NCBI GenBank assembly: GCA_963791495.1
Contig: CAWBST010000021.1
Span: 136,515 to 200,514, forward strand
DNA length: 64,000 bases
Source: an uncultured Alphaproteobacteria bacterium
GTDB taxonomy: Bacteria > Pseudomonadota > Alphaproteobacteria > Acetobacterales > Acetobacteraceae
Reading direction: 5' to 3'
A model generated the notes under the pieces. The model saw only the letters and a program-made list of their open reading frames with translations, was not told the origin of the DNA and searched no databases. This document shows positions 22,644 to 52,793 of this stretch, piece after piece. Each line of letters begins with the position of its first letter. Position 1 is the stretch's first letter. The position numbers and the translations under genes were made by a program.

Positions 22644-22919
22644 CGGATCCTTCTCCAGGACACAGATTTTCTCCGCCAAACGGACCGGCAAATCAACGGG
22701 ACGCGGCAGCGCTTGAGCCGGATGGCGGAGCGTCAGACGTGATTGCGGTGGTGACAGCGAGTTTCGCCGCCGGAGCCTTGATCAGGTCCGATCCCGACAT
22801 CGCCTGTGGCAAGAGAGGAAGGCTCTCTCCGGCCACGGTCCAACGAGGGTCATTTGCAATGCCATGAATCGTCTTTTATCAGAAACCGTTCATCGACGAC
22901 AAGCGTCGGGAGGAGTGAC

Positions 22920-23759
22920 ATGCGCAACGCGCCCTTCGAGGTGAGACCGATCGCCGGCGCCCTGGGTGCCGAACTGTCTGGGGTGAACCTTGCCGGCGAT
23001 CTCGCCCATGCCACCATCGGCGCAATCCGTCAGGCGCTGCTTGATCACCTGGTGATCTTCTTCCGCGATCAGGACCTGCCACCCGAGCGTCTTCAGGCGC
23101 TGGCGCGCCGGTTCGGTACGCCGATCGAATACCCGTTCGTCAAGGGCATCGAGGGTTTCCCGGAGATCATCAACGTCACCAAGCTCGAACACGAGACGAC
23201 CAACTTCGGTGGGGTGTGGCACTCCGACACGACCTATCTGCCGGAGCCGCCGATGGCGACGCTGCTGATCGCGCGCGAGGTGCCCGAGGCCGGTGGCGAC
23301 ACGTTGTTCGCCAACCAGTATCTCGCCTACGAGACGCTGTCAGAGAAACTGCGCGGACTGCTCGCCGGGCTGCGTGGCGTGTCCAGTTCGGCTAAGGCCG
23401 ACGCCAGCCGCACGCGCGAGGACCGCATCCGGTCCGACGGTAGCGCCGATGCGCGCAAGTTGCTGGAGGCCGAGCATCCGGTGGTGCGCACTCACCCCGA
23501 GACCGGACGCAGGGCGCTCTACGTCAACCGTGCGCACACCGTTGGCATCGCAGGCATGACCGCGGAGGAGAGCGCACCCCTGCTCGAGTTCCTGTTCCGC
23601 CATCAGATCCGCCCGGAATTCACCTGTCGCTTTCACTGGACACCAGGGTCGCTGGCGATCTGGGACAATCGCTGCGCACAGCACTACGCGGTGAACGACT
23701 ACCACGGCCAGCGCCGCGTCATGCAGCGCATCACGCTCGCCGGCGATCGGCCGGAATGA
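22920..23759 (+). CDS. TauD/TfdA-family Fe(II)/2-oxoglutarate dioxygenase
   Basis: GVWHSDTTYL (HxD), GGDTLFAN, and WDNRCAQHYAVNDY. ATG behind GGGAGGAG. Confidence 0.85.
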   Translation: MRNAPFEVRPIAGALGAELSGVNLAGDLAHATIGAIRQALLDHLVIFFRDQDLPPERLQALARRFGTPIEYPFVKGIEGFPEIINVTKLEHETTNFGGVWHSDTTYLPEPPMATLLIAREVPEAGGDTLFANQYLAYETLSEKLRGLLAGLRGVSSSAKADASRTREDRIRSDGSADARKLLEAEHPVVRTHPETGRRALYVNRAHTVGIAGMTAEESAPLLEFLFRHQIRPEFTCRFHWTPGSLAIWDNRCAQHYAVNDYHGQRRVMQRITLAGDRPE

Positions 23760-37301: not shown

Positions 37302-38468
37302 TCAATACGACTTCGGCAAATCGAGTACGCGCTCGGCGAGATAGCTCAAGATCAACTGCGGACTGACCGGTGCGATGCGCGGGATCAGCAATTCACGCAG
37401 GTAGCGCTCGACGTGGTACTCCTGCGCATAGCCCATGCCGCCATGCGTCATAACGGCCTGCTCGCAAGCCCGGAAGCCAGTCTCACCGGCGAGGTACTTC
37501 GCCGCATTGGCTTCGGCACCGCACGGCTGACCCTGATCGTAGAGCCAGGCGGCCTTCATCACCATGAGGTTGGCCGCCTCCAGCTCGGCCCAGCATTTTG
37601 CAAGCGGATGCTGGATTGCCTGATTCTGCCCGATCGGCCGGCCGAACACCACGCGCTCGCGCGCATAGCCTGAGGCACGCTCCAGCGCAGCGCGCCCGAT
37701 GCCGATCGCCTCGGCTGCGACCAGCACGCGTTCGGGATTGAGGCCGTGCAGCAGAGTGCGGAACCCCTCGCCTTCCTCACCGATGCGGTCTTCCTCCGGC
37801 ACCTCCATGTCCTCAAAGAACACCATGTTCGAGTCGACCGCGTGCCGCCCCATCTTGTGGATCAGCCGCACCTCGGCATGGGCGCGGTCGAGCGTGGTGT
37901 AGAACAGCGTCAGCCCATGGCTGTGACGCTTCACCTGATCGAGCGGCGTAGTGCGCGCCAGCACCAGGATCTTGGTCGCGACCTGCGCCGTCGAGGTCCA
38001 GATCTTGGCGCCATTGATCACGTACCGATCGCCGCGGCGCTCGGCACGTGTGGTGATCTGCGTGGTGTTGAGGCCGGCATTCGGCTCGGTGACGCCGAAG
38101 CAGGCCTTGTCTGTGCCGGCGATGATCGGCGGCAGCATGCGCCGCTTCTGCGCCTCGGTCCCGAACACCACGACCGGGTTGAGGCCGAAGATGTTGAGGT
38201 GGATCGCCGATGCGCCCGACATGCACGCGCCGGATTCGGCCACCGCCTGCATCAGGATCGCGGCCTCGGTGATGCCGAGACCGGCGCCACCATACTCCTC
38301 CGGCATGGCGATGCCGAGCCAGTTACCCTCCGCCATGGCGGCGAAGAAGGCGTCCGGGAAGGTCGCGGTCCGGTCGCGTTCCAGCCAGTAGGCGTCATCG
38401 AATCGGGCGCACAGCTTCAGCACCTCGTCGCGGATCTGCTGCTGCGGGTCGGTCAGGGCGAAGTCCAT
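37302..38468 (-). CDS. Acyl-CoA dehydrogenase
   Basis: 388 aa. [11 protein letters not shown], and C-terminal [23 protein letters not shown]. Confidence 0.9.
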
Positions 38469-38513
38469 CAGGCGGGCCTTTCAGACGCTGCCAGGGTGGG
38501 CCATATTTGTCCC

Positions 38514-39499: not shown

Positions 39500-39787
39500 A
39501 TGACCGAGCACACCACCCCGTTGTGGGAGGTCTTCATTCGCGCACGCACGGGCCTGGCGCACAGGCATGTCGGCTCGGTGCACGCGGCTGACGCAACGCT
39601 GGCACTGCAGGCGGCGCGCGACGTCTATACGCGTCGCGGTGAAGGGCTTTCCATCTGGGTCGTGCCGTCGGCAGCGATCACGGCCTCAGATCCGGCGGAC
39701 AAGGAGATGCTGTTCGAGCCGACGGCCTCGAAGATCTACCGTCACCCCACGTTCTATGAAGTGCCCGACGAAGTGGACAACATGTAA
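39500..39787 (+). CDS. paaB: 1,2-phenylacetyl-CoA epoxidase subunit B
   Basis: MTEHTTPLWEVFIRARTGLAHRHVGSVHA...IWVVPSAAI. Starts 2 nt after the paaA stop. Confidence 0.9.
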   Translation: MTEHTTPLWEVFIRARTGLAHRHVGSVHAADATLALQAARDVYTRRGEGLSIWVVPSAAITASDPADKEMLFEPTASKIYRHPTFYEVPDEVDNM

Positions 39788-39836
39788 TGCGGTGGTGCAG
39801 GCTCTTCTGCCTGACGCACCGCAGGGATGAAACGCG

Positions 39837-41096
39837 ATGAATGCTCCGGTCAGTGTCGATACGCGCGAGGAAGCCTGGTCGCTTCCGCTCGACAGGATCG
39901 ACGTCAGCCAGCCGCGGCTTTACCAAGACGACATCTGGCATCCGTATTTCGAACGCCTGCGCCGGGAAGATCCAGTGCACTGGTGCGAGGACGGGATGTA
40001 CGGCTCGTACTGGTCGGTGACCAAGTACAAAGACATCATGCAGGTGGATACTAACCAGAAGATCTATTCGTCCGATGCCATGATGGGCGGCATCGTGCTG
40101 CGCGATACGCCGATGGATTATCGCCGGCCGAGCTTCATCTCGATGGATCAGCCGAAGCACGACGAGCAGCGCAAGGTGGTGTCGCCTGTCGTCGCACCGA
40201 TGAACCTGCAGCGTCTCTCCGGTACGATCCGCGAGCGCACGCAGCGGGTGCTGGATGGACTGCCGCGCGGCGAGGCGTTCGACTGGGTGGATCGCGTGTC
40301 GATCGAACTCACGACGCAGATGCTTGCCACGCTGTTCGACTTTCCGTTCGAGGAGCGGCGGAAGCTCACCTACTGGTCGAACGTTGCGACCGTGAACACG
40401 CGCGCCGGCACCGAGATCGATTCTGACGAGAAACGCGACGCGGTTTTGCAGCAGGCGATGGAATACTTCGTCCAGCTCTGGCACGAACGGTCGAAACAGG
40501 AGCCGCGTCCTGACCTGATCTCCATGCTGGCGCATGGCGAGGCGACACGCGATTTGCCGTCGCGGCCGCGGGAATTCATGGGCAACATCCTGCTGCTGCT
40601 GATTGGCGGCAATGACACGACGCGGAACTCGATGTCCGGGGGGCTGTGGGCGCTACACAACAATCCTGACCAGTATCGCAAGCTGATGGACAACCCCGCA
40701 CTGGTGACGAGCCTGGTGCCAGAAATCATTCGCTACCATACGCCAGTGATTCACATGCGGCGTACGGCGCTGGAGGATGCCGACCTGGGCGGCAAGCGCA
40801 TCCGCAAGGGCGACAAGGTCGCGATGTGGTACATCTCGGGCAACCGCGACGATGAGGCGATCGAGAACGCCAACGACTTCATCATCGATAGAGCGCGGCC
40901 ACGGCAACATCTGTCGTTCGGCTTCGGCATCCATCGCTGCGTCGGCAACCGCCTGGCCGAGCTGCAACTGACGATACTGTGGGAGGAGATCCTGCAGCGC
41001 TTTCCGATGATCGAGGTGCTCGAACCGCCGCAGCGCGCTTACTCCAACATCCTGCGTAGCATCGCCTCGATGCCGGTTCGTATTCCTGTGCACTGA
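39837..41096 (+). CDS. Cytochrome P450, CYP153-like
   Basis: I-helix LLLLIGGNDTTRNS, EXXR (EIIRYHTP), and Cys ligand loop HLSFGFGIHRCVGNRLAE. N-terminus SYWSVTKYKDIMQVD. All resemble CYP153 hallmarks as I recall them. Confidence 0.88.
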   Translation: MNAPVSVDTREEAWSLPLDRIDVSQPRLYQDDIWHPYFERLRREDPVHWCEDGMYGSYWSVTKYKDIMQVDTNQKIYSSDAMMGGIVLRDTPMDYRRPSFISMDQPKHDEQRKVVSPVVAPMNLQRLSGTIRERTQRVLDGLPRGEAFDWVDRVSIELTTQMLATLFDFPFEERRKLTYWSNVATVNTRAGTEIDSDEKRDAVLQQAMEYFVQLWHERSKQEPRPDLISMLAHGEATRDLPSRPREFMGNILLLLIGGNDTTRNSMSGGLWALHNNPDQYRKLMDNPALVTSLVPEIIRYHTPVIHMRRTALEDADLGGKRIRKGDKVAMWYISGNRDDEAIENANDFIIDRARPRQHLSFGFGIHRCVGNRLAELQLTILWEEILQRFPMIEVLEPPQRAYSNILRSIASMPVRIPVH

Positions 41097-41100
41097 GGAC

Positions 41101-41859
41101 GTGGCGGCAACCACCTCAATCACTGTCGAAGAGACGCCGCTCGTCCTCCAACTTCTGTCCAGGGCGGATGATGCGCTGATCCTTGGGCATCGTCTGTCGG
41201 AATGGACCGGCCACGCGCCGATGCTCGAGGAGGAGCTGGCGCTGGCCAACATCGCGCTCGATCTCATCGGCCAAGCGCGGACCCTATACGGCTATGCGGG
41301 CACGCTCACCGGCCACACCGAGGACGAGCTTGCCTATCTGCGTGACGTCCCGGCATGGCGGAACTGCCTGATCGTGGAGCTTCCGAATGGCGACTTCGCC
41401 TTCAGCATCGCGCGCCTTCTGCTGGTCTCGGCGTTCGTCGATCCGTTCTGGCGCGCGTCAGCCGCGTCCACCGACAGCACGATTGCCGCCATCGCTGCGA
41501 AGGCGGAGAAGGAGACCTCTTATCACCTGCGGCACGCGGCTGAGTGGCTGATTCGCCTTGGCGACGGCACCGCGGAAAGTCATCGTCGCGCGCAGACCGC
41601 GCTCGATGATCTGTGGCCTTACACGGGCGAACTGTTCACCGACCTGGCGAGTGATGCCGGAATAGTCCCGGACCCGATATCGCTCCGTGATGCCTGGAAC
41701 GCTACCATCGACAGTGTCCTGGCACGCGCCACGCTTGCGCGTCCGCCGGATGGCTGGAGGCAGTCGGGCGGGCGGATCGGACGGCACACCGAACACCTCG
41801 GGTACTTGTTGGCGGAGATGCAATTCCTTCAGCATACCTATCCAGGCGCCACATGGTAG
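41101..41859 (+). CDS. paaC: 1,2-phenylacetyl-CoA epoxidase subunit C
   Basis: GTG start 4 nt after the P450 stop. LILGHRLSEWTGHAPMLEEELALANIALDLIGQAR. Confidence 0.85.
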   Translation: MAATTSITVEETPLVLQLLSRADDALILGHRLSEWTGHAPMLEEELALANIALDLIGQARTLYGYAGTLTGHTEDELAYLRDVPAWRNCLIVELPNGDFAFSIARLLLVSAFVDPFWRASAASTDSTIAAIAAKAEKETSYHLRHAAEWLIRLGDGTAESHRRAQTALDDLWPYTGELFTDLASDAGIVPDPISLRDAWNATIDSVLARATLARPPDGWRQSGGRIGRHTEHLGYLLAEMQFLQHTYPGATW

Positions 41860-42341
41860 ACGCCAACTCGCTGCGCGAACGTGCACTTGCCGCACTGGAA
41901 GAGGTCACCGATCCTGAGATCCCGGTACTGACGATCACCGATCTCGGGATCCTGCGCGACGTTTCGGTGCGCGATGGCGTGGTAGAGGTCACCATCACGC
42001 CCACCTACTCCGGCTGCCCTGCGATGAACATGATCACGCTAGAGATCGAAACGGCACTCGCTCGCGCCGGCATCAAGGCGCGTGTGCACACAACCTTATC
42101 GCCCGCCTGGACGACCGACTGGCTGACGGATGCAGCGCGCCGCAAGCTTGCAGCTTTCGGCATCGCCCCGCCGGAACACGCTGCAGCACGTCGCGCGCTG
42201 TTTGGTGAGGCAAGTCCTGCCTGTCCGCAGTGCGGCAGCGCCGACACCGAACAGATCAGCGAGTTCGGCTCGACCGCGTGCAAGTCCCTGCACCGCTGCC
42301 GCACATGTCGCGAACCGTTCGATGCCTTCAAGTGCCATTGA
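41853..42341 (+). CDS. paaD: Phenylacetate-CoA oxygenase subunit PaaD (PaaJ)
   Basis: VTDPEIPVLTITDLGILRDV, TPTYSGCPAM, and C-terminal CPQCGS...CRTC. Overlaps the paaC stop. Confidence 0.85.
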   Translation: MVDANSLRERALAALEEVTDPEIPVLTITDLGILRDVSVRDGVVEVTITPTYSGCPAMNMITLEIETALARAGIKARVHTTLSPAWTTDWLTDAARRKLAAFGIAPPEHAAARRALFGEASPACPQCGSADTEQISEFGSTACKSLHRCRTCREPFDAFKCH

Positions 42342-42358
42342 TCAACAGGGAGGAAGCC

Positions 42359-42751
42359 ATGGCGAGACAGGCGATCATCACCGACAAGGCGCCGAAGCCG
42401 GGCGGACATTTCGCGCAGGCGATAGCGGTGGAAGCGACCGGCAGGCTGGTGTTCATCTCCGGCATGGTCGCACAGCGGCCGGACGGCACGATCGCCGGCA
42501 TTGGCGACATCGAGGCGCAGACGCGCCAAGTCTGCGAGAACGTCAAGGCCGCGGTGGAGGCCGCGGGTGGCACGCTCGCGAATGTCTGCCGCGTCGATGT
42601 CTATGTGCGCAACATGGAGAATCTGGCGCCAATTCATAAGGTGCGGCGCGAGTACTTTCCGTCTCCGCCGCCGGCCTCGACGCTGGTCGAGGTGAGCAAG
42701 TTCACTCATCCGGATTACCTCATCGAGATGAGCGCGATCGCCGTCGTGTGA
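42359..42751 (+). CDS. RidA/YjgF-family reactive-intermediate deaminase
   Basis: 130 aa. APKPGGHFAQAI..GRLVFISGMVA...IEAQTRQVCENVKAAVEAAGG.L.NV.RVDVYV. SD GGGAGGA. Confidence 0.88.
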   Translation: MARQAIITDKAPKPGGHFAQAIAVEATGRLVFISGMVAQRPDGTIAGIGDIEAQTRQVCENVKAAVEAAGGTLANVCRVDVYVRNMENLAPIHKVRREYFPSPPPASTLVEVSKFTHPDYLIEMSAIAVV

Positions 42752-42787: not shown

Positions 42788-43795
42788 ATGGCGTTTGGCA
42801 ATGCATATCGGACCGACACCGATGGAGATACGCCAATGCCAGCATTGCTCGACCCGCGCGAGGGGCACTTCCGCATTCCCAGCAGCCATGCCGGGCTATC
42901 GCTGTTCCTCCGCTATCTGCCGCCGCCCAACGGAATGCCGACAAAAGGCGTTGTGCTTTACGTCCACGGCGCGACGTTTCCCTCCGCGCTGTCGATCGCT
43001 CACCGCTTCGATGGCCGTTCCTGGCGCGACGAACTCTGCGCGGCGGGCTTTCATGTCTGGGGATTCGACTTTCATGGCTACGGCCACTCGGATCCCTATC
43101 CCGGCATGTCTGAACCGCCAGAGGGGCGCGAACCACTCTGCCGCGCGGATGACGCCAGCCGGCAGCTGGAACAAGCCGCGCGTTTCATCTGCCAGCATCA
43201 CGCGACCGAGCGGATTTCCATTGTCGCGCATTCCTGGGGTACGATCGTTGCCTGCCACTTTGCCGCGCGCTGCTCGGAGCTGGTTGACCGGCTGGTGCTG
43301 TTCGGGGCCATCGCACGCCGAAATGGCACGGCCGCGCATGGCTATCCGGCATGGCGGCTCGTCTCGCTGCAGGATCAGTGGCAGCGTTTCACTGCGGAGG
43401 TTCCCCCAGACGAGCCGCCCGTGCTGTCGCGCCGGCATTTTGCCGAATGGGGCGAGCGCTATCTGGACAGCGACGCGGCGAGCTGGACGCGGACGCCACC
43501 CAGTGTGCAGACGCCGAGTGGACCTTGGTTCGACATTGGCCGCGCCTGGGCAGGCGATCTTGCCTACGATCCTGCGCTCGTCCGCGCGCCAGTGGCGATC
43601 ATTCGCGGCGAGTGGGACAGCATGTGCACCGATGCCGACGCCGCCTGGCTGTTCGGCGCCTTCACCTCATCGCCGATCCGGCGCGATGTGAAGATCAGCC
43701 GCGGCACGCATCTGATGCATCTGGAGACAAGCCGCTACGCGCTGTATCGCGAGACGCAGAATTTCCTCGCGGGCGGCGATGCGCCCCCTACATAG
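42788..43795 (+). CDS. Alpha/beta-fold hydrolase
   Basis: VVLYVHGATFPS, FDFHGYGHSD, and nucleophile elbow VAHSWG. Confidence 0.7.
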   Translation: MAFGNAYRTDTDGDTPMPALLDPREGHFRIPSSHAGLSLFLRYLPPPNGMPTKGVVLYVHGATFPSALSIAHRFDGRSWRDELCAAGFHVWGFDFHGYGHSDPYPGMSEPPEGREPLCRADDASRQLEQAARFICQHHATERISIVAHSWGTIVACHFAARCSELVDRLVLFGAIARRNGTAAHGYPAWRLVSLQDQWQRFTAEVPPDEPPVLSRRHFAEWGERYLDSDAASWTRTPPSVQTPSGPWFDIGRAWAGDLAYDPALVRAPVAIIRGEWDSMCTDADAAWLFGAFTSSPIRRDVKISRGTHLMHLETSRYALYRETQNFLAGGDAPPT

Positions 43796-43853: not shown

Positions 43854-44735
43854 ATGAGCGTCCTGCGAGGCAACAACGGACCGCGCTATAAGCACAGCGC
43901 CGATGAGCCGGTCGCTTACGACACGATCACCGTCGACAAGCTGACGCCGATCATCGGCGCGGAGATCGGCGGCGTCGATCTCTCGCAGCCGCTGGGCAAC
44001 CAGACCTTCGAGGAGATCCACCGCGCGCTGGCGGAGAACCTGGTGATCTTCTTCCGCGACCAGCACATCAGCGAGGACCAGCACCTCGATTTCGGCCGCA
44101 GCTTCGGAAAACTGCACCTCCATCCCGCGGCGCCACACGCAGCGGGCCATCCGGAGCTGATGGTTATCCATGCCGACAAGGATTCGCCGCGCGCCAACGG
44201 CGAAGGCTGGCACAGCGATGTGTCCTGCGACGTGGAGCCGCCGATGGGCAGCATCCTGTATATCCGCAAGTGCCCACCGCGCGGTGGCGACACGCTGTTC
44301 GCCTCGATGTATGCCGCCTACGAGGCGCTGTCGGACCGCATGAAGAGCTATCTGGAGGGCCTCACTGCGATCCATGATGGCGAGGACGCGTATCGCGGCA
44401 CCTACGCCAACTATGGTGTCGCGGACAAGCCGACCTATCCGCGCGCCGAACATCCGGTAATCCGCACGCATCCGGTGACCGGCAAGAAGGCACTTTACGT
44501 CAACCGCGGCTTCACCAAGCGCATCGTCGGTGTTCCGCGCGACGAGAGCAACGCGATCCTGCACTACCTGTGGGACATGGCGGAGGATCCGTTGTTCCAG
44601 TGCCGTTTCCGTTGGCGGGAGAACTCCATCGCGTTCTGGGACAACCGCTGTGCGCAGCATCGCGCCATGTGGGACTACTGGCCGCACACGCGCTCGGGCC
44701 ATCGCGTGACCGTGCAGGGCGACAGGCCGGTCTGA
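43854..44735 (+). CDS. TauD/TfdA-family Fe(II)/2-oxoglutarate dioxygenase (second copy)
   Basis: GEGWHSDVSCD (HxD), GGDTLFASM, and WDNRCAQHRAMWDY. ATG behind AGGGAG. Confidence 0.85.
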   Translation: MSVLRGNNGPRYKHSADEPVAYDTITVDKLTPIIGAEIGGVDLSQPLGNQTFEEIHRALAENLVIFFRDQHISEDQHLDFGRSFGKLHLHPAAPHAAGHPELMVIHADKDSPRANGEGWHSDVSCDVEPPMGSILYIRKCPPRGGDTLFASMYAAYEALSDRMKSYLEGLTAIHDGEDAYRGTYANYGVADKPTYPRAEHPVIRTHPVTGKKALYVNRGFTKRIVGVPRDESNAILHYLWDMAEDPLFQCRFRWRENSIAFWDNRCAQHRAMWDYWPHTRSGHRVTVQGDRPV

Positions 44736-45121
44736 TGGCGAATGCAGCGACCTCGCCACTGGGCGTCTATCTCGAACATCTGGAGAAGGGCGAACTGGCC
44801 TATCAGTTCAGCCCCGAGGCCAATGCCGCAGTGTTCTATCCTCGCGTGATCTGCCCGTTCACCGGCAGCGACAAGCTGCAATGGCGGGTAAGCAAGGGGA
44901 TTGGCACCGTGCACGCCACCACCGTCGTGTATCCGCAGAGGGGCGATCCCTACAACGTCGCGCTGATCGACATCGACGAGGGCTTCCGCATGATGAGCCG
45001 TGTCGAGGACATCGCGCCGTTGGACGTCCGCATCGGCATGAGGGTGAAGTTCCGCGTCCACGCCGCGGAGGGCGATGAGCCGCCCTATCCGGTATTCACG
45101 CCGGCGGATGCTTCGCCATGA
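44735..45121 (+). CDS. DUF35-type OB-fold protein (thiolase partner)
   Basis: 128 aa. Overlaps the stop of tauD and the start of the thiolase-like gene. OB-fold segment GTVHATTVVY...YNVALIDIDEGFRMMSRV. Confidence 0.75.
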   Translation: MANAATSPLGVYLEHLEKGELAYQFSPEANAAVFYPRVICPFTGSDKLQWRVSKGIGTVHATTVVYPQRGDPYNVALIDIDEGFRMMSRVEDIAPLDVRIGMRVKFRVHAAEGDEPPYPVFTPADASP

Positions 45122-46272
45122 ACGGCCTCACGCGCGGCAGCGCAGCGATCGTTGGCGCGGCCGAATCGGATATCGGTGCGGTCGCCGCCAACATGAGTCC
45201 GCTCGACCTGATGGCCCAGGGCATCCATCGCGCGCTCGCAGACTGTGGGCTGAAACTGAGCGACGTCGACGGCATCTTCTGCGCTGCCACGCAGGCGCGA
45301 ACGTCGGCGATGTCGCTCTGCGAGTATCTTCGCCTTCCCTCGGCGTATACCGACTCCACCATCGTCGGCGGCTCGTCTTTCGAGGTGCACGTCGCGCACG
45401 CCCAGGCGGCGCTTGCGGCGGGTCTGTGTTCTGTCGCGGTGATCGCGTATGGCAGCACACAGCGCACAGTTGGCAGACGGCAGGCTTCGGCGCGCGAGTA
45501 CAATCCATACGAAACACCATTCAGGCCGTTCCTGCCCTCCACGGCGTACGCGCTCACAGCCTCGCGTCACATGCACGAATACGGCACTACGCGCGAACAG
45601 CTGGCCGAAGTGGCGGTGGCCGCGCGCGAATGGGCGCTGTTGAACCCGGTCGCATGGGAGAAGAAGCCTCTCACCATCCAAGAGGTGCTGTCGGCACGAC
45701 CGATCAGCCATCCGTTCACCGTACGCGACTGCTGCCTGATCACCGATGGTGGCGGCGCCATCGTGATGATGTCAGCCGACCGCGCACGAAGTCTGGCGAA
45801 GCCTCCGGTCTATGTCCTCGGCTGCGGCCAGGCAATCACGCACGCGTCGATCTCCTCGATGCCGGACCTCACCGTCACCGGAGCACGCGAATCAGGCGCC
45901 GCCGCCTATCGCATGGCGCAGATGCGTGAGACCGACATCGACGTGCTGGCGCTGTATGACGCGTTCACGATCAATACGATCTTGTTCCTCGAGGATCTGG
46001 GGTTCTGCCCAAAAGGCGAGGGCGGACGATTCGTCAGCGGCGGCCGCATCGGACCGAAGGGCAGCCTGCCCGTCAACACCAATGGCGGCGGGTTGTCCTA
46101 TTGCCATCCCGGCATGTACGGACTGTTCCTGCTGATCGAGGCAGTGCGTCAGTTGCGTGGCGAGTGTGGTGAACGCCAGGTCGCACAGGCGCAGACCGCG
46201 CTCGTGCACGGCAATGGTGGCGTGTTGTCGGCGCAGGCAACGGTGATCCTGGGGACGCAGGCTACGGTGTAG
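45118..46272 (+). CDS. Thiolase-like protein (SCP-x / lipid-transfer type)
   Basis: 384 aa. AIVGAAESD N-terminus and C-terminal VNTNGGGLSYCHPGMYG. The DUF35 + thiolase pairing is typical. Confidence 0.8.
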   Translation: MNGLTRGSAAIVGAAESDIGAVAANMSPLDLMAQGIHRALADCGLKLSDVDGIFCAATQARTSAMSLCEYLRLPSAYTDSTIVGGSSFEVHVAHAQAALAAGLCSVAVIAYGSTQRTVGRRQASAREYNPYETPFRPFLPSTAYALTASRHMHEYGTTREQLAEVAVAAREWALLNPVAWEKKPLTIQEVLSARPISHPFTVRDCCLITDGGGAIVMMSADRARSLAKPPVYVLGCGQAITHASISSMPDLTVTGARESGAAAYRMAQMRETDIDVLALYDAFTINTILFLEDLGFCPKGEGGRFVSGGRIGPKGSLPVNTNGGGLSYCHPGMYGLFLLIEAVRQLRGECGERQVAQAQTALVHGNGGVLSAQATVILGTQATV

Positions 46273-46600
46273 CTCCGTCGGTCAGCGTGTAGGTCCGCAT
46301 CGCGCAGATATCGACGTTGCGGCGGATTTCGCTGGTTCCGTCGGTGAATACCAACTTGAAGTCGTAGCGGCAGTCGCCGGCCGGATCCTCCAGGTCGAGC
46401 TGCACGAAGTGATTGGGCTGCAGCCCGCGCCGGCTGAGCAGGTCCACATTCCACTCGTCAGTTCCCGCGTGAGAGGCGAAGAACGAGGCCACTGTGGTGC
46501 GCGAACTGTTCACCAGGTTCAGATCGCGCGTGAGGTGGCTGGCCTGTGCCACGGTCGCAAGGCTTGTCATCGCCAGCAGGGCGATCATGGTCCTGAACAT
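46262..46600 (-). CDS. Small secreted hypothetical protein
   Basis: Signal peptide MFRTMIALLAMTSLATVAQA. Two Cys (CRYDFKLVF...VDIC). Tail-to-tail 11-nt overlap with the thiolase-like gene. Confidence 0.5.
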   Translation of the reverse strand: MFRTMIALLAMTSLATVAQASHLTRDLNLVNSSRTTVASFFASHAGTDEWNVDLLSRRGLQPNHFVQLDLEDPAGDCRYDFKLVFTDGTSEIRRNVDICAMRTYTLTDGATP

Positions 46601-46723
46601 CGGCGCCGGCCTCCTCGCCAGGCTTCGCGACGGGGAGGCATATCCGAGTATGGACGGCCTGCTGAACTGGAAGGATGCCCTGTGCGCATCCCATCATTTT
46701 CCTGTTTTGTTCTTACTTCAAGG

Positions 46724-47590
46724 TTACAGTTCAGTGCTGTGCCGAATCAATTCTGCCGCTCGACGAACGCCGCCGAAGGTGAAGACATGCAGACCTGCAA
46801 TCGGTGCATCGGCGGTTTCGCCGGCCACCAAGTCGGCGATCAATGCTTCCGGGCCGGCCTCCGTCATGATGCGCGCGAATGCCGTGTGGCCGCGTGCCAG
46901 CGCACGCAGCGACGCACCGATGCCACAGCGGATGGCGAACTTGGCGAGCGTGGCCACAGTCGCGGGACCGGCAACGCCGACATGCACCGGGCAGTCCATG
47001 CCATGCGCGCGTTGGGCCGCGATCCAGCGCAGGATCGGCTGCGCCTCGAAGCCGAACTGCGTCACCAGCGATATCGCAAGCCCACCCTGTCTCGCCAGCG
47101 CCACCTTCGCCTGCAGCGCCGCATCCAGGGTGTGCGCGTCGATCGCCGGATGACCCTCGGGATAGCCGCCGAACGAGACCTGCGCGATGCCGTGCCGCTC
47201 CACGACACCGGTCGCCAGCAAATCGAGGCTGGCTCGGAACGGCCCCACGGGACTGTCGTCGCCACCGATCAGCAGGATGCGATCGACCGCCGCCTCGCCC
47301 GCCGCGCGCTGCAGGAAGTCGCTGGCCTGGGTGAAACTCGCCAGACGCCGGGCAGCGACATGCGGCACGGGGACAAAACCGGCGCGACGCAGCCGCGCAC
47401 AGGCAGCGACGATGTCATGGTGTGTCACGCTGGGCGGGTGGTTGACGAATACGGTCGTGCCAGGAGCGAGCAGCTTGCGCAGCGCATCGCCGGCGAGTTC
47501 GTCACGCGGCGACAGTTCGAGCGAACAGTCGGCGATCAGCGCCGCTGTGCGCTGATGCTGCGTGGCTGTGAGGGTGGTTGCGTCCATCAT
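46724..47590 (-). CDS. Divergent methylenetetrahydrofolate reductase-family protein
   Basis: From ATG 47590 (MMDATT...): CSLELSPRD occupies the place of the MetF FEFFPP motif. GGYPEGHP resembles MetF YPExHP. TGATG overlap with the upstream gene. Confidence 0.65.
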   Translation of the reverse strand: MMDATTLTATQHQRTAALIADCSLELSPRDELAGDALRKLLAPGTTVFVNHPPSVTHHDIVAACARLRRAGFVPVPHVAARRLASFTQASDFLQRAAGEAAVDRILLIGGDDSPVGPFRASLDLLATGVVERHGIAQVSFGGYPEGHPAIDAHTLDAALQAKVALARQGGLAISLVTQFGFEAQPILRWIAAQRAHGMDCPVHVGVAGPATVATLAKFAIRCGIGASLRALARGHTAFARIMTEAGPEALIADLVAGETADAPIAGLHVFTFGGVRRAAELIRHSTEL

Positions 47591-48954
47591 CAGGAGTCCC
47601 GCTTGCGCGAGATCACGTAGGACTCGTCCCAGAACCATAGGCCGCCGCGTTCTTGCAGCACGGCCTTGGTCGCTTCGAGATAGGCGCCACTGCTGATCGC
47701 TTCGGACAGTCGCTGGTCCTCGATCTGCGCGACATAGACCGCGGCATTCCACGCGGCGAACAGCGTCGAGGTGCCGATCGTCTCGCTGATCTCGCTTGGC
47801 AGCGTGTGCATGTCGTAGCGGAACAGCGAGCGCGCATCTGCGTAGGCGCCAAAGTTCAGGTCACGCCCGGCGCTGCCGAGTTCCGCCTTGGTCGCGCGCA
47901 GCAGGGCGTGGCGGTCGGTGGTGAACGGATTCTCGCCCGGCCAGATGCGCTGGATGATCTCGAGCCCCGGATCGTCGCCGTGCGAGTGGATGGCGATCAG
48001 CCTGCCGCCCGGCGCCAGCGCGCGCGCCAGCGGCGCCACAACCCGGCGCGCCTTGAACTCAAGTGACGCACGCGCGCGATAGGGCTGCGAGGCGATCACC
48101 AGGTCGTACTCGGCCTCGGTGAAGCCACGGCGCGGGCGGACCTGATCCAGCAGGAACCTGTGGTCCTCGCGGTAGATCACCAGAACGACCGGCTTCTCGT
48201 AAACCGGATTGCCGCTGGCGCCGCTCACGCGGGCGCGCCAGTTCTCGGAGAGAAACGGGCCCAGATCGGTGATCTGGGTCTCGAACTCGTGCGCGGTGTT
48301 GCCGGTGAGCGAAAGCTCGTGCCAGACGAGGCTGGTGGCGGCATTGACCGAGTTCGGCTTCAGCCACGGCGCCTCGGAATAGTACATGTTGGTCATCACC
48401 AGCACCGTCGCGGGATGCTCGAACAACCGGTCGGGCATCTTCTCCAGCACGAGGCGCACATCCTCGAGGCTGACCTCCTTGCCGACGATGTAGAACGGCA
48501 TGGTCGGGAAGCGGTTGTGCATCGCACGCATGGTCCGGGCGAGCACCGTGCCGTCGCCCATGCCCGCGTCGAACAGGCGCACTGCCGGCGGGCGCGGATG
48601 GATGTTGGCGAGCTCCATGCCGACGCGTTGGGCGATCACCCACTTCTCGCCGCAGGTGGTGACGAACAGCAGGTATTTCTGCCGGTTGTCGTAGAAGCGG
48701 AAGTTGTGCGTGGTGCGGGTGGTTGGCTGCGGCGGCGCCGATGGCGGGCGGACGGCGGCGCCGTTGAGGATGCGGTGCGGCTCACGGGCGATGAAGGCGC
48801 GCACCCGGTCCACCGTATCGGTGGTGACGCGTCCGCCGAGGCGCAGCCGGCTGACCAGCTTGCCGTCGTTCACCGCGAGGCGCCCGAAGGTGGACTCGGC
48901 CATGCGGGCGCTACGGCAGAACTCGGCTATGTCGTGCAGGAGCGTTTCGCTCAA
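47590..48954 (-). CDS. Hypothetical 454-aa protein: N-terminal HTH-like segment plus class I methyltransferase-like core
   Basis: TTG start 7 nt after GGGAGG. N-terminus IAEFCRSARMAESTFGRLAVNDGKLVSRLRLGG. RLFDAGMGDGTVL resembles SAM motif I. LAPGGRLIAIHS resembles a post-motif region. Confidence 0.5.
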   Translation of the reverse strand: MSETLLHDIAEFCRSARMAESTFGRLAVNDGKLVSRLRLGGRVTTDTVDRVRAFIAREPHRILNGAAVRPPSAPPQPTTRTTHNFRFYDNRQKYLLFVTTCGEKWVIAQRVGMELANIHPRPPAVRLFDAGMGDGTVLARTMRAMHNRFPTMPFYIVGKEVSLEDVRLVLEKMPDRLFEHPATVLVMTNMYYSEAPWLKPNSVNAATSLVWHELSLTGNTAHEFETQITDLGPFLSENWRARVSGASGNPVYEKPVVLVIYREDHRFLLDQVRPRRGFTEAEYDLVIASQPYRARASLEFKARRVVAPLARALAPGGRLIAIHSHGDDPGLEIIQRIWPGENPFTTDRHALLRATKAELGSAGRDLNFGAYADARSLFRYDMHTLPSEISETIGTSTLFAAWNAAVYVAQIEDQRLSEAISSGAYLEATKAVLQERGGLWFWDESYVISRKRDS

Positions 48955-48962
48955 AGGACAAC

Positions 48963-48986
48963 CTCCCGGACCGATCGTCCCGGGAG
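48963..48986 (-). promoter_or_regulatory. 5'-UTR hairpin that sequesters the Shine-Dalgarno of the 454-aa gene
   Basis: mRNA CUCCCGG-N10-CCGGGAG. The 3' arm contains GGGAG of the GGGAGG SD. Confidence 0.35.
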
Positions 48987-49055
48987 TGAGCGACTACGTG
49001 GGCAATGCGTCAACCACAATCGTGCCCACTTACAGCGTGGGCGGTAGAGTGGGAC

Positions 49056-49865: not shown

Positions 49866-50954
49866 TCACCCAGCGGAGAAGTCTATCAGCTGCCGCACGA
49901 GAGTACCCTGCTTCATCCGTGCAAAGCCTTCGTTGATCTCATTCAGCTTGATGTGGCCGGAGATCATGTGGTCAAGCTTCAGCTTGCCCTGCACGTAGAG
50001 TTCCAGCAGCCGCGGCATGTCGACACGGAACCGGTTGCCGCCCATCGATGTGCCCTGGATCTTGCGATCGCGCAGAAAGTCCGCGCCATGCAGCTCGATC
50101 TTTGTGCCAAGAGGGATCATGCCGATGATCGTCGCGGTGCCGCCTGGGCGCAGCATGGCAAACGACTGTTCCGCAGTGGTCTTGGTGCCGATCGCCTCGA
50201 ACGAATACGGCACGCCGCCACCGGTCATGTCCTTCACCATCTCCACCGGATCGGCGTTCGACGCATTGATCGTATCGGTGGCACCCATCTGCCGCGCGAC
50301 ATCCAGCTTCGACGCCACCGTGTCGATAGCGATGATGCGTGATGCGCCCGCCATCGCCGCGCCATTCACCGCGGACAACCCTATGCCGCCACAACCGATC
50401 ACCGCGACGGTGGAGCCTGGCTCCACCTTCGCCGCGTGAAACACGGCGCCGACTCCAGTCATGACGCCGCAGCCAACCAGCGCGCAGCGATCGAGCGGCA
50501 CGTCGTCGCGTACCTTCACAACCGCATGCTCGTGCACCAGCATGAATTCCGCAAAGGCAGACAGGTTCATAGCCTGGTTCAACACCTCACCCTTCCAGGT
50601 GAGACGACGCGCCGCGCCAGGAAGCAGCTTCACCTCGGTGTTCTCGCAGAGATTGGGATGACCGGTCATGCATTGCGGACATTCGCCGCAGAACACGGAG
50701 AGGCAGGTGATCACATGATCGCCCGGCTTGACGTAGGTCACGTCATCACCGACCGCCTCGATCACGCCGGCCGCCTCGTGACCCAGCACGCAAGGAGTGG
50801 GGAACGGATATAGCCCTTCGATGAAATGCAGATCAGAATGGCACAGGCCGGCATAGGCGGTGCGCACCAGGACTTCACGGCGCTTCAGTGACGCGTGCTC
50901 GACGTTCTCGATGGTGAGTGGCTGGTTCGGCTCGTGGAATACGGCTGCCCTCAT
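49866..50954 (-). CDS. Zinc-dependent alcohol dehydrogenase
   Basis: GLCHSDLH, GHEAAGVIEAVG, and CGECPQCMTG. ATG 50954 behind GGAGGA. Confidence 0.9.
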   Translation of the reverse strand: MRAAVFHEPNQPLTIENVEHASLKRREVLVRTAYAGLCHSDLHFIEGLYPFPTPCVLGHEAAGVIEAVGDDVTYVKPGDHVITCLSVFCGECPQCMTGHPNLCENTEVKLLPGAARRLTWKGEVLNQAMNLSAFAEFMLVHEHAVVKVRDDVPLDRCALVGCGVMTGVGAVFHAAKVEPGSTVAVIGCGGIGLSAVNGAAMAGASRIIAIDTVASKLDVARQMGATDTINASNADPVEMVKDMTGGGVPYSFEAIGTKTTAEQSFAMLRPGGTATIIGMIPLGTKIELHGADFLRDRKIQGTSMGGNRFRVDMPRLLELYVQGKLKLDHMISGHIKLNEINEGFARMKQGTLVRQLIDFSAG

Positions 50955-51106
50955 GGTTTCCTCCATCGCCTTATGAAGGGGACGCTAGTCCCGGGCACCG
51001 GGAAAGGAAAGGTCAGCGGACCACTGACATTGCTTCCGTAGTCAGTTGCAGCGCGCGTCACATCATTCACGTGTCATTCCTGGACGACGCGCCTCCAAAC
51101 GCGATT

Positions 51107-51502
51107 CTACAGCACCATCTGCGTCTGCGTTACCTTCGCCACCAGCCGCCCCTGCTCATTGATGATCCGCGTCTCCCATACCTGGGTGCGCCGACCGCGA
51201 TGCAGCGGCGTTGCCTCGGCGATCAGCCGCGTTCCCATCGGCGAGCCGGCGAAGAAGTTCGTCTTGCTTTCCACCGTCGTGGTCCCCTGCCCTTCGCGCA
51301 GGTTCACCACCGTACCCAGCGCACCGACCGTGTCGGCGAACGCCATGACAGCGCCACCGTGCATGATGTCGCCGGAGGTACAGAGATCCTCGCGCACCGT
51401 GAGTTCGGCAACCACGCGATCTGGTTCCGCGACCGTGACGGTGATACCCATCCAACGCGGCAGCGGCGGCAATTCCCGTTGCAGGCGAGCGACCAGTTCC
51501 AT
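51107..51502 (-). CDS. PaaI-family hotdog-fold thioesterase
   Basis: 131 aa from the internal ATG. GDIMHGGAVMAFADTVGALG...TVESKTNFF. Confidence 0.8.
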   Translation of the reverse strand: MELVARLQRELPPLPRWMGITVTVAEPDRVVAELTVREDLCTSGDIMHGGAVMAFADTVGALGTVVNLREGQGTTTVESKTNFFAGSPMGTRLIAEATPLHRGRRTQVWETRIINEQGRLVAKVTQTQMVL

Positions 51503-51574
51503 GTGCGTTCCCCTCTCTTGCGGCCGGCGCCGGCCTCGGCCAATACCGGCCGAACGCCGAAGGAACCGAATGCC

Positions 51575-52793
51575 ATGACCCGTCAGGCCGAGTCGATTAT
51601 CCATGAAGTCATGGAAAGCGAGGCATACGGCCGGGCTGTCGCCACCCTGACTGCCGAACACGACCGGACGGTGGAAGACATCGTCACGTTGACCCAGATT
51701 GCCGCACCGTCGTTCCAGGAGGAGACCCGCGCCCGCGCCTTTCTCGCGATGGCCAAGGCGCACGGTCTGAAGGACTTGGAGATCGACGGCGAGGGCAACG
51801 TCACGGGCCGGCGCCCTGGAGTGGGGAATGGCCCACTTATCTGCATCGCTGCCCACCTCGACACGGTGTTCCCCGCCGGCACCGACCTGACCGTGCGGCG
51901 CGAGGGCACGCGGCTCTACGCGCCCGGCGTCGGCGACGATACGCGTTCGCTGGCGGTGCTGCTGGCCTGGCTGCGCGCGATGGATGCAGCCGATGTGCGC
52001 ACCCGCGCCGATCTGCTGTTCGTCGCCGATGTCGGCGAGGAAGGGCCAGGCGACCTGCGCGGCATGCGGCACCTGTTCGGGAAAGGCCCGATACAAGGAC
52101 CGCATCAGCGCCTTCATCACGGTGGACAGCCCGGACATGAGCCACATCGCAACTGGCGGGGTCGGCTCCAAGCGCTATCGCGTGACCTTCAAGGGCCCCG
52201 GCGGCCACAGCTACGGTGCGTTCGGACTGGTGAACCCGATGTTCGCCATGGCGGACACGATCGCCCGGCTCGGCCGCATCACGGTGCCGGCCAGCCCGAA
52301 GACCACCTACAGCGCGTCCGTCACCGGCGGCGGCACGTCGATCAACTCGATCCCCAACAGCGTGTGGACGGACTTCGACCTGCGATCGGAATCGCCTGCC
52401 GAACTGGCCCGGCTGGAGGCAACCTTCCTCGATCTGGTGGCAAGGTCGGTCGCCGCGGAGAATGCGACGCGCTCGACCCGGAACGGCCCGGTATCGACGG
52501 AAATGGTGAAGATCGGCGACCGGCCAGCGGGCCGCACCGACGAGCGCAGCGAACTGGTCCGCATCGCGCACGCGGCGATCAGCGCGCACGGGTTTCAGCC
52601 CAAATTCGAAACCTCCTCGACCGACGCGAACATTCCGATGAGCCTCGGCATCCCCGCGATCAAGATAGGCTCCGGCGGCACGGGTGGACGTGCCCACTCG
52701 CTTGAGGAATGGATCGACGTGGCGCCGGAGCCGTCCATCCGCGGCATGGCCGCCGGCCTCGCAACCGTGCTGGCAGTCGCGGGGATCGTCTGA
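51575..52793 (+). pseudogene. M20-family peptidase with a +1 frameshift at about 52085-52089
   Basis: N-half in the frame of ORF 50918..52705 (IAAHLDTVFP, GVGDDTRS, VGEEGPGDLRGMRHLF). C-half in ORF 51984..52793 (RYKDRISAFITVDS...GGTSINSIPN...HSLEEWI). Removing one base of GGCCC joins them. Confidence 0.8.

Follow-up and report, generated by a model that had tools for sequence, protein, structure and literature searches.

A CYP153A-type cytochrome P450 gene held between paaB and paaC in a clade of uncultured Acetobacteraceae

Gene order, junctions and identity of the P450

The stretch of DNA analysed here, referred to as the window, comprises 64,000 nucleotides of contig CAWBST010000021.1 (positions 136,515 to 200,514) from an uncultured alphaproteobacterium of the family Acetobacteraceae. 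It contains a cytochrome P450 gene located between paaB and paaC, two genes for subunits of phenylacetyl-CoA 1,2-epoxidase, within a run of ten same-strand genes that extends from paaA to a thiolase gene with intergenic gaps of -7 to +58 nt (Table 1). The PaaA, PaaB, PaaC and PaaD products were identified by the NCBIfam equivalog cut-offs, all of which were exceeded, with concordant results in Pfam, and showed 70%, 58%, 48% and 50% identity, respectively, to the E. coli proteins. The metal-motif (EXXH) blocks of PaaA (HAHSE, QDExGH, VDGAA and KEESFH) are identical to those of E. coli PaaA (3PVR). Six JGI metagenome contigs, assembled independently of one another, encode the identical P450 protein with its neighbours in the same order.

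Table 1. Features of the paa locus and its immediate flanks (positions are those of the window)
Feature	Coordinates	Strand	Evidence and remarks
Acyl-CoA dehydrogenase	37302..38468	-	Pfam Acyl-CoA_dh_N/M/1; divergent from paaA; 93-95% identical in clade relatives
paaA	38514..39497	+	Catalytic di-iron subunit of phenylacetyl-CoA 1,2-epoxidase; TIGR02156 539 bits (cut-off 280); start agrees with JGI call
paaB	39500..39787	+	Bridging subunit; TIGR02157 129 bits (cut-off 85), PF06243; TAA at 39785-39787
Stem-loop, GC-rich	39788..39823	+	Fills most of the paaB-P450 spacer; no U-tract; -23.7 kcal/mol
P450, CYP153A subfamily by sequence, 419 aa	39837..41096	+	CYP153A7 (3RWL) 572 bits, 62% identity; TGA at 41094-41096
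paaC	41101..41859	+	Structural subunit; GTG start, same as JGI call; TIGR02158 274 bits (cut-off 133)
paaD	41853..42341	+	TIGR02159 192 bits (cut-off 108); FeS_assembly_P and PaaD zinc ribbon; 7-nt overlap with paaC
RidA/YjgF-family protein	42338..42751	+	PF01042; 4-nt overlap with paaD
Alpha/beta-fold hydrolase	42788..43795	+	Pfam Abhydrolase_1 / Hydrolase_4; no NCBIfam or PDB match
TauD/TfdA-family Fe(II)/2-oxoglutarate dioxygenase	43854..44735	+	PF02668; nearest structures TauD 238 bits, RdpA 205 bits
DUF35 / ChsH2-type OB-fold protein	44735..45121	+	PF01796
SCP-x-type thiolase	45118..46272	+	NF004811 615 bits; PDB 4U4E 391 bits; 4-nt overlap with OB-fold gene

Both junctions of the P450 gene were checked on the open reading frame (ORF) map and the raw sequence. 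The spacings given in an earlier note on this DNA, which had been made from the sequence alone, were confirmed: the ATG of the P450 gene (39837) follows the paaB stop codon after a 49-nt spacer, and 4 nt (GGAC) separate the P450 stop codon from the GTG start codon of paaC. A ribosome-binding site (AGGGA, 39823-39827) lies 9 nt upstream of the ATG, and the P450 stop codon sits within the GAGGA ribosome-binding site of paaC. Neither a terminator-like nor a sigma-70-like promoter site was predicted at the paaB-P450 or the P450-paaC junction. The P450 gene lies inside the same-strand gene run and not beside it, as the earlier note had also stated. The hairpin in the paaB-P450 spacer gave z = -3.1 against shuffled sequences in RNA folding and was not scored as a terminator, and the corresponding spacers of relatives also hold hairpins, of different, unrelated sequence. 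As an mRNA-stability or attenuation element, it may set the ratio of paaAB to downstream expression.

The P450 product showed 62% identity over 409 aligned residues (E = 6e-171) to CYP153A7 (P450pyr, PDB 3RWL) of Sphingopyxis/Sphingomonas sp. HXN-200. As this value exceeds both thresholds of the P450 nomenclature convention (at least 40% identity for a family, at least 55% for a subfamily), the protein, described as CYP153-like in the earlier note, is on sequence criteria a genuine CYP153 and a member of subfamily A. Among the 13 best PDB matches are all chains that carry a CYP153 label (CYP153A7, CYP153D17 and 'P450 alkane hydroxylase'), the others being named only 'Cytochrome P450'. The EXXR motif (EIIR, residues 296-299) and the haem-thiolate loop (FGFGIHRCVGN, residues 361-371, matching FxxGxxxCxG) are intact and identical or near-identical to those of CYP153A7. 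The I-helix block GGNDTTRN, at residues 257-264, is likewise shared with CYP153A7: residues 249-264 (NILLLLIGGNDTTRN) align with NVLLLIVGGNDTTRN of that protein, and the CYP153 signature (L)LL(I)(V)GGNDTTRN is present. The two proteins differ in the B'/BC-loop, which is 5 residues shorter in the window P450, and in substrate recognition site 5 (SRS5), which reads TPVIHMRR in the window P450 versus TPLAHMRR in CYP153A7; TPVIHMRR is also found in the sister P450 of Rhodopila globiformis, which is not linked to paa genes. An RYH variant follows EXXR in the window P450 and is not found clade-wide.

CYP153 enzymes belong to class-I three-component systems, whose ferredoxin (Fdx) and ferredoxin reductase (FdR) genes are usually, though not universally, located in the same operon. 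The CYP153A of Polaromonas sp. JS666 (plasmid 2), about 61% identical to the window P450 over its full length, is encoded in the order P450-FdR-Fdx, whereas the window P450 has no adjacent ferredoxin or ferredoxin reductase gene and lies inside the paa operon instead. A tblastn search with the Polaromonas FdR and Fdx detected no such partner, either in the window or at any of the paa-linked loci, and Pfam scans of about 75 window ORFs yielded no local redox partner.

The earlier note had regarded the surroundings as a di-iron epoxidase operon. This part of its description was not supported in so far as the flanking genes are an orphan epoxidase core, paaABCD, and not a normal paa catabolic operon. 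E. coli PaaE to PaaH, PaaJ, PaaK, PaaX and PaaY gave no tblastn match at E <= 1e-3 in the 64-kb window (paaZ was not probed), nor did Azospirillum PaaE, PaaN, PaaG and PaaH in a six-frame search of it, and no match to PaaE of Azospirillum or E. coli was obtained in the 80 related loci described below. A weak PaaI-like hot-dog domain at 51107-52171 was the sole further paa-pathway match in the window. Epoxidation in vitro needs PaaA, PaaB and PaaC together with the reductase PaaE (FAD/NAD(P)H plus plant-type 2Fe-2S) (PMC9493321). A 2026 survey (PMC13186573) describes fragmented paa clusters as common in Alphaproteobacteria and also reports strong positional conservation of paaA/B/C. The contiguity of paaA-paaB-paaC given in the earlier note for ordinary operons holds in E. 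coli K-12, in Azospirillum lipoferum 4B and in the outgroup metagenome-assembled genomes (MAGs) at loci L088, L089 and L091, whereas paaB and paaC of the window are split by the 1,260-nt P450 gene. Compared with paaABCDE of E. coli K-12 and A. lipoferum 4B, the window keeps the relative order of PaaA to PaaD and the paaC-paaD overlap. It differs in the 1.26-kb P450 insert, in the lack of paaE after paaD and of paaF-K, paaX and paaY in the 64 kb (again leaving aside paaZ, which was not probed), and in that paaD is followed instead by RidA, hydrolase, TauD, DUF35 and thiolase genes.

Conservation and history of the arrangement

Relatives of the P450 were collected with one genome per GTDB species, which gave 80 loci, and the window proteins were mapped onto these. 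The arrangement described in the earlier note was not confined to the window: paaB lies directly upstream of the P450 gene in 18 species representatives (18 of the 19 species of the paa-linked clade), all of them MAGs of uncultured Acetobacteraceae or 'Alphaproteobacteria' obtained from soil, pasture and peat. The P450s of these representatives share 84-94% identity with that of the window. The genes from paaC-paaD-ridA to the thiolase gene follow directly downstream of the P450 gene in 12 of these 18. All paa-linked P450s formed one clade in a neighbour-joining (NJ) tree. The P450 gene at L014 is not accompanied by paaAB; as it is nested inside this clade next to L006 in the NJ tree, the state of L014 is a secondary loss of paaAB.

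Pairwise synonymous divergence (dS) within the clade was about 0.85-1.0, and dN/dS was 0.10 for the P450 gene, 0.05-0.06 for paaA and paaB, 0.12 for paaC and 0.03 for ridA. All of these genes are functional and under purifying selection. Since the paa-linked P450s are monophyletic and have diverged to a dS of about 0.9 under purifying selection, the arrangement goes back to a single, old insertion of the P450 gene between paaB and paaC in the ancestor of the clade. Base composition agrees with this. The G+C content of the P450 gene at third codon positions (GC3, 0.81), and likewise at second positions (GC2, 0.40), is like that of the neighbouring genes, so the insertion is old; the overall G+C content is 0.61 vs 0.64, a deficit arising from codon positions 1 and 2 with GC3 unchanged. 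Taken with the match to CYP153A7, the codon-position pattern also marks the ORF as certainly a real gene. Recent horizontal transfer, considered on the basis of composition, was rejected because GC3 of the P450 gene equals that of its neighbours.

The junctions vary within the clade. Most members of the clade share the cAGGGAtgaaacgcg block before the P450 ATG, whereas L004, L010 and L015 have variants of it, and the paaB-P450 spacer ranges from 39 to 517 nt. Between the P450 gene and paaC, the gap measures 3-4 nt in the subclade of the window and 29-53 nt in the other subclade; the junction TGAGGxCGTGGC recurs in four relatives from the former (L001-L004), and L009 has a 3-nt variant.

The state before insertion was read from the contexts of PaaB homologues at 86-88% identity. 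L088 carries a canonical paaABCDE with a PaaE-type reductase. L089/L090 (9012-11607) carry AraC-paaA-paaB-(111 nt)-paaC-paaD, with neither paaE nor a P450 gene, and L091 (9019-11507) carries a divergent acyl-CoA dehydrogenase gene, whose product is an 83%-identical orthologue of the one flanking paaABCD in the window, followed by DUF347 and paaABCD, also without paaE. No other paa gene was located within 10 kb of paaABCD at L089/L090 and L091. Like the window, these orphan clusters of related Acetobacteraceae/Rhodospirillales MAGs lack paaE, encode PaaA at 83-89% identity and, in L091, have the divergent acyl-CoA dehydrogenase gene; unlike the window, they contain no P450 gene (the 111-nt spacer or overlapping paaB and paaC genes being found in its place) and no downstream module from RidA to the thiolase. 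As the outgroups L089/L090 and L091 already carry it, the PaaE-less stand-alone paaABCD is older than the P450 insertion, and the P450 gene and the RidA-to-thiolase module were both added only in the clade of the window. L089 and L019 belong to the same MAG (DATKPQ), in which a P450 78% identical to that of the window is encoded on a separate contig, L019.

The lineage from which the insert came can likewise be traced. Sister P450s, including that of R. globiformis DSM 161 (L020), are 74-78% identical to the window P450 and have no paa genes nearby. At L020, L022, L025, L028 and L029, a fatty-acyl-CoA-synthetase-like gene follows within about 20 nt after the P450 gene, and at L020, L022, L028 and L029 hydrolase, acyl-CoA dehydrogenase, enoyl-CoA hydratase or DUF35-thiolase genes are located near these P450-acyl-CoA synthetase (ACS) operons. 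In the basal relatives L018 (3795-10527), L023 (1938-8882) and L042 (3770-10530), FdR and Fdx genes precede four tandem CYP153 paralogues, an unusually large CYP153 array whose products are 63-78% identical to the window P450. Unlike the window locus, the P450-ACS operons and the FdR-Fdx-(CYP153)x4 arrays come with a synthetase or with redox partners of their own.

After the insertion, rearrangements have repeatedly had their breakpoints at the two flanks of the P450 gene (L005, and downstream of 9260 in L006, L010, L012, L014 and L015). In L005 (9257-17257), the block from paaC to the counterpart of the window gene at 47590 is inverted, with a breakpoint directly after the GTG of paaC; in L006 and L014, the P450 gene is joined to an aspartokinase/PtsP region. 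An IS110-type transposase gene follows the P450 gene in L015, and an insertion sequence (IS) transposase gene lies upstream of paaA in L010. L010 (6509-10803), a member of the paa-linked clade, has the order paaA-paaB-P450-ACS, and its synthetase is 68% identical to the one encoded after the sister P450 gene in R. globiformis. This arrangement is either a relic of a co-insertion of P450 and ACS genes or the product of later recombination; intragenic recombination as its source was rejected, as a sliding-window identity scan showed no switch of nearest relative.

Other genes of the window

The start codons of paaA and the divergent acyl-CoA dehydrogenase gene are only 45 nt apart (38469-38513), an interval that ranges from 45 to about 570 nt in relatives (L026 vs L001 and L002); with 45 nt, the promoter of paaA must extend into the coding region next to it. 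Among the ten genes of the run, the RidA gene is the most constrained (93-98% identity in relatives, with the low dN/dS given above), which is odd for an accessory gene of a remodelled operon. The alpha/beta-fold hydrolase gene is missing in the relatives L004, L008 and L041, and the TauD/TfdA-family protein scores below the taurine dioxygenase cut-off. OB-fold proteins of the DUF35/ChsH2 type are the usual partners of SCP-x-type thiolases. Substrate clues were sought in the TauD-like protein, the hydrolase and the generic SCP-x thiolase, and none was decisive.

Downstream of the operon, about 3 kb (46262-49047) is occupied by ORFs with good coding statistics and no Pfam or NCBIfam match. The ORF at 47590-48954 (minus strand) encodes a 454-aa product that is 87-93% conserved in relatives, and it travels with the inverted block in L005. 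At 49866-52171 (minus strand) are genes for a class-III-like Zn alcohol dehydrogenase and a 354-aa protein with a C-terminal PaaI-like hot-dog thioesterase domain (28% identical to PaaI), which, about 4-6 kb downstream of the operon, could share its catabolic route. Fe(II)/2-oxoglutarate oxygenases are numerous in the window, which also encodes a second TauD-family dioxygenase at 22806-23759, sharing 41-43% identity with the copy in the operon, and, at 1772-2590, an ectoine-hydroxylase-like PhyH dioxygenase adjoining a short-chain dehydrogenase/reductase (SDR). The segment 57294-62612 encodes an RsbR/RsbS/RsbT/RsbU-like stressosome module (RsbRD_N-STAS, STAS, HATPase and SpoIIE phosphatase) and, after it, a hybrid histidine kinase that has two receiver domains; it bears no relation to the P450 finding.

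Possible roles of the P450 and meaning of the arrangement

CYP153A enzymes are hydroxylases of terminal and benzylic methyl groups, acting on alkanes, p-cymene and toluene derivatives, and require a ferredoxin and a ferredoxin reductase (PMC12932734). From sequence and gene context we tentatively propose, with a probability of about 0.4, that the P450 acts as a peripheral terminal or benzylic hydroxylase, not as a subunit of the epoxidase, and that its products converge on phenylacetyl-CoA. The P450 gene would be co-transcribed with paaA-paaB from a promoter upstream of paaA, the stem-loop that follows paaB may adjust how much upstream message is made relative to downstream message, and translation of paaC would be coupled to termination on the P450 message, because the P450 stop codon overlaps the paaC ribosome-binding site. 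As a class-I P450 without local partners, the enzyme would take electrons from a ferredoxin and a ferredoxin reductase encoded elsewhere, and the PaaABC core would similarly depend on a reductase encoded elsewhere. The P450 would oxidise the methyl end of a hydrophobic substrate bearing a side chain, such as an alkylbenzene, a phenylalkane or a phenylalkanoate. Oxidation to the acid, CoA activation and beta-oxidation, in which the acyl-CoA dehydrogenase and the DUF35-thiolase pair may take part, would then bring the product to phenylacetyl-CoA epoxidase, and joint expression of both oxygenases would be advantageous.

This role fits the locus in that the P450 lineage is constantly found beside enzymes of CoA esters, and in that the acyl-CoA dehydrogenase and DUF35-thiolase genes flank the operon. 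The adjacency of paaB and the P450 gene, kept in 18 of 19 species despite breakpoints at both flanks, also speaks for it. Several observations weigh against it. The operon contains no alcohol or aldehyde dehydrogenase gene, no acyl-CoA synthetase gene and no paaK, and neither paaG (paaZ was not probed) nor a redox partner was found, so that the proposed route could not be completed locally. The contexts of the sister P450s are those of generic beta-oxidation, not of aromatic metabolism. L255, in the I-helix block, is the sole residue specifically fixed in the paa-linked clade, which gives no sign of adaptation to an aromatic substrate; a substrate shift of the P450 after the insertion was rejected on this ground. 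The transcription units may differ between lineages, since the paaB-P450 spacer reaches 242-517 nt in L012 and L007 and one subclade has a P450-paaC gap of 29-53 nt. In addition, five genomes hold paaAB-P450 without paaCD downstream, and L014 holds the P450 gene without paaAB; thus, tight coupling is not obligatory.

Nearly as likely as the role of peripheral hydroxylase, though still rather improbable when taken by itself, is that the P450 gene is a hitch-hiker, that is, a dispersed copy of a multi-copy CYP153 family that landed in a permissive, non-overlapping paaB-paaC spacer and is unrelated to phenylacetate metabolism. Such a copy would have persisted by gaining expression there and would do the same job as its sister copies (omega-hydroxylation of alkanes, fatty acids or terpenoids). 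The surroundings of the sister P450 genes, which stand in arrays or with an acyl-CoA synthetase gene and never with paa genes, point in this direction, as does the presence of only one fixed substitution specific to the clade. The closest outgroup has a 111-nt paaB-paaC spacer able to accept an insertion, L014 indicates that the P450 gene can stand alone, and the partner downstream of the P450 gene varies among paaC, an acyl-CoA synthetase gene, an IS110 transposase gene and the aspartokinase region. No pathway-completing genes lie nearby. The hitch-hiker reading is less readily reconciled with the retention of the paaB-P450 adjacency in 18 of 19 species at a dS of about 0.9 despite frequent local rearrangement, or with the tight 3-4-nt coupling to paaC that arose in the subclade of the window. 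Membership of a bacterial operon, moreover, usually reflects shared function or shared regulation.

We consider it unlikely that the two oxygenases form a hybrid system acting on one CoA-bound molecule (phenylacetyl-CoA, an aryl-alkanoyl-CoA with substituents or a product derived from the epoxide), possibly through one shared reductase/ferredoxin encoded in trans. The analysis gave no direct support for the hybrid pathway suggested in the earlier note, in which the P450 would hydroxylate a substituted phenylacetyl or aryl-alkanoyl substrate on either side of the ring-epoxidation step. The P450 gene does lie between genes for subunits of one complex, it is probably coupled translationally to paaC, judging from the overlap of stop codon and ribosome-binding site, and its lineage is consistently found beside enzymes of CoA esters; neither oxygenase has a local reductase, and a common electron donor would be economical. 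However, characterised CYP153A enzymes act on free hydrophobic substrates, which enter by a narrow channel, and to our knowledge no CoA-ester substrate of the CYP153 family has been described. The P450 sequence shows no remodelling relative to its sisters, whose lineages are found in non-paa contexts (Fdx/FdR arrays and P450-ACS operons), and electron chains of the PaaE type and the putidaredoxin type are different systems. A mechanistic coupling, in which the CYP153 works on the CoA-bound substrate of the epoxidase or one ferredoxin/reductase pair encoded in trans drives both the P450 and the PaaE-less PaaABC, is given little credence; if true, a shared ferredoxin/reductase would explain why paaABCD is kept without paaE throughout this group of Acetobacteraceae.

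It is also unlikely, as PaaA is 70% identical to E. coli PaaA and has identical metal motifs, that the flanking genes encode a paralogous di-iron oxygenase for another acyl-CoA, with the P450 serving in that pathway alongside the RidA, TauD, hydrolase and thiolase proteins. The lack of paaE, paaK, paaG and other paa genes in the 64 kb would suit such a paralogue, and so would the clade-specific fusion to the RidA/hydrolase/TauD/DUF35-thiolase module, which is not part of any described paa cluster. Against these stand the scores of PaaA to PaaD, all far above the NCBIfam equivalog cut-offs, and the frequency of fragmented paa clusters in Alphaproteobacteria (PMC13186573). A chimeric assembly or a pseudogene is ruled out with near certainty by the six metagenome contigs, the 12 species with the full arrangement, the full-length ORF with all motifs and the dN/dS of 0.10.

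Within the library searched, no paper on CYP153, or any P450, inside a paa operon and none on CYP153 in Acetobacteraceae was found; the earlier note had treated the insertion as a departure from the usual paa layout. The parts are ordinary members of CYP153A and PaaABCD, and what is new is a conserved, undescribed operon architecture. The block paaA-paaB-paaC is among the most positionally conserved in aromatic catabolism, and a P450 gene held inside it is an unrecorded exception. Sequences of the clade with the insert recur in numerous metagenomes and MAGs from soil, pasture and peat, and the clade offers a natural experiment in operon remodelling, in which one can see the contexts of the donor, the state before the insertion and several of the rearrangements that came later. 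In this group of Acetobacteraceae, paaABCD clusters without PaaE are common, which raises the question of what reduces their di-iron centre. If the P450 gene were merely a hitch-hiker, the arrangement would be a gene-order curiosity; if the P450 feeds the phenylacetyl-CoA route, the locus would tie the hydroxylation of alkyl-aromatic side chains to CoA-dependent ring epoxidation in a compact genetic form in these uncultured Acetobacteraceae.

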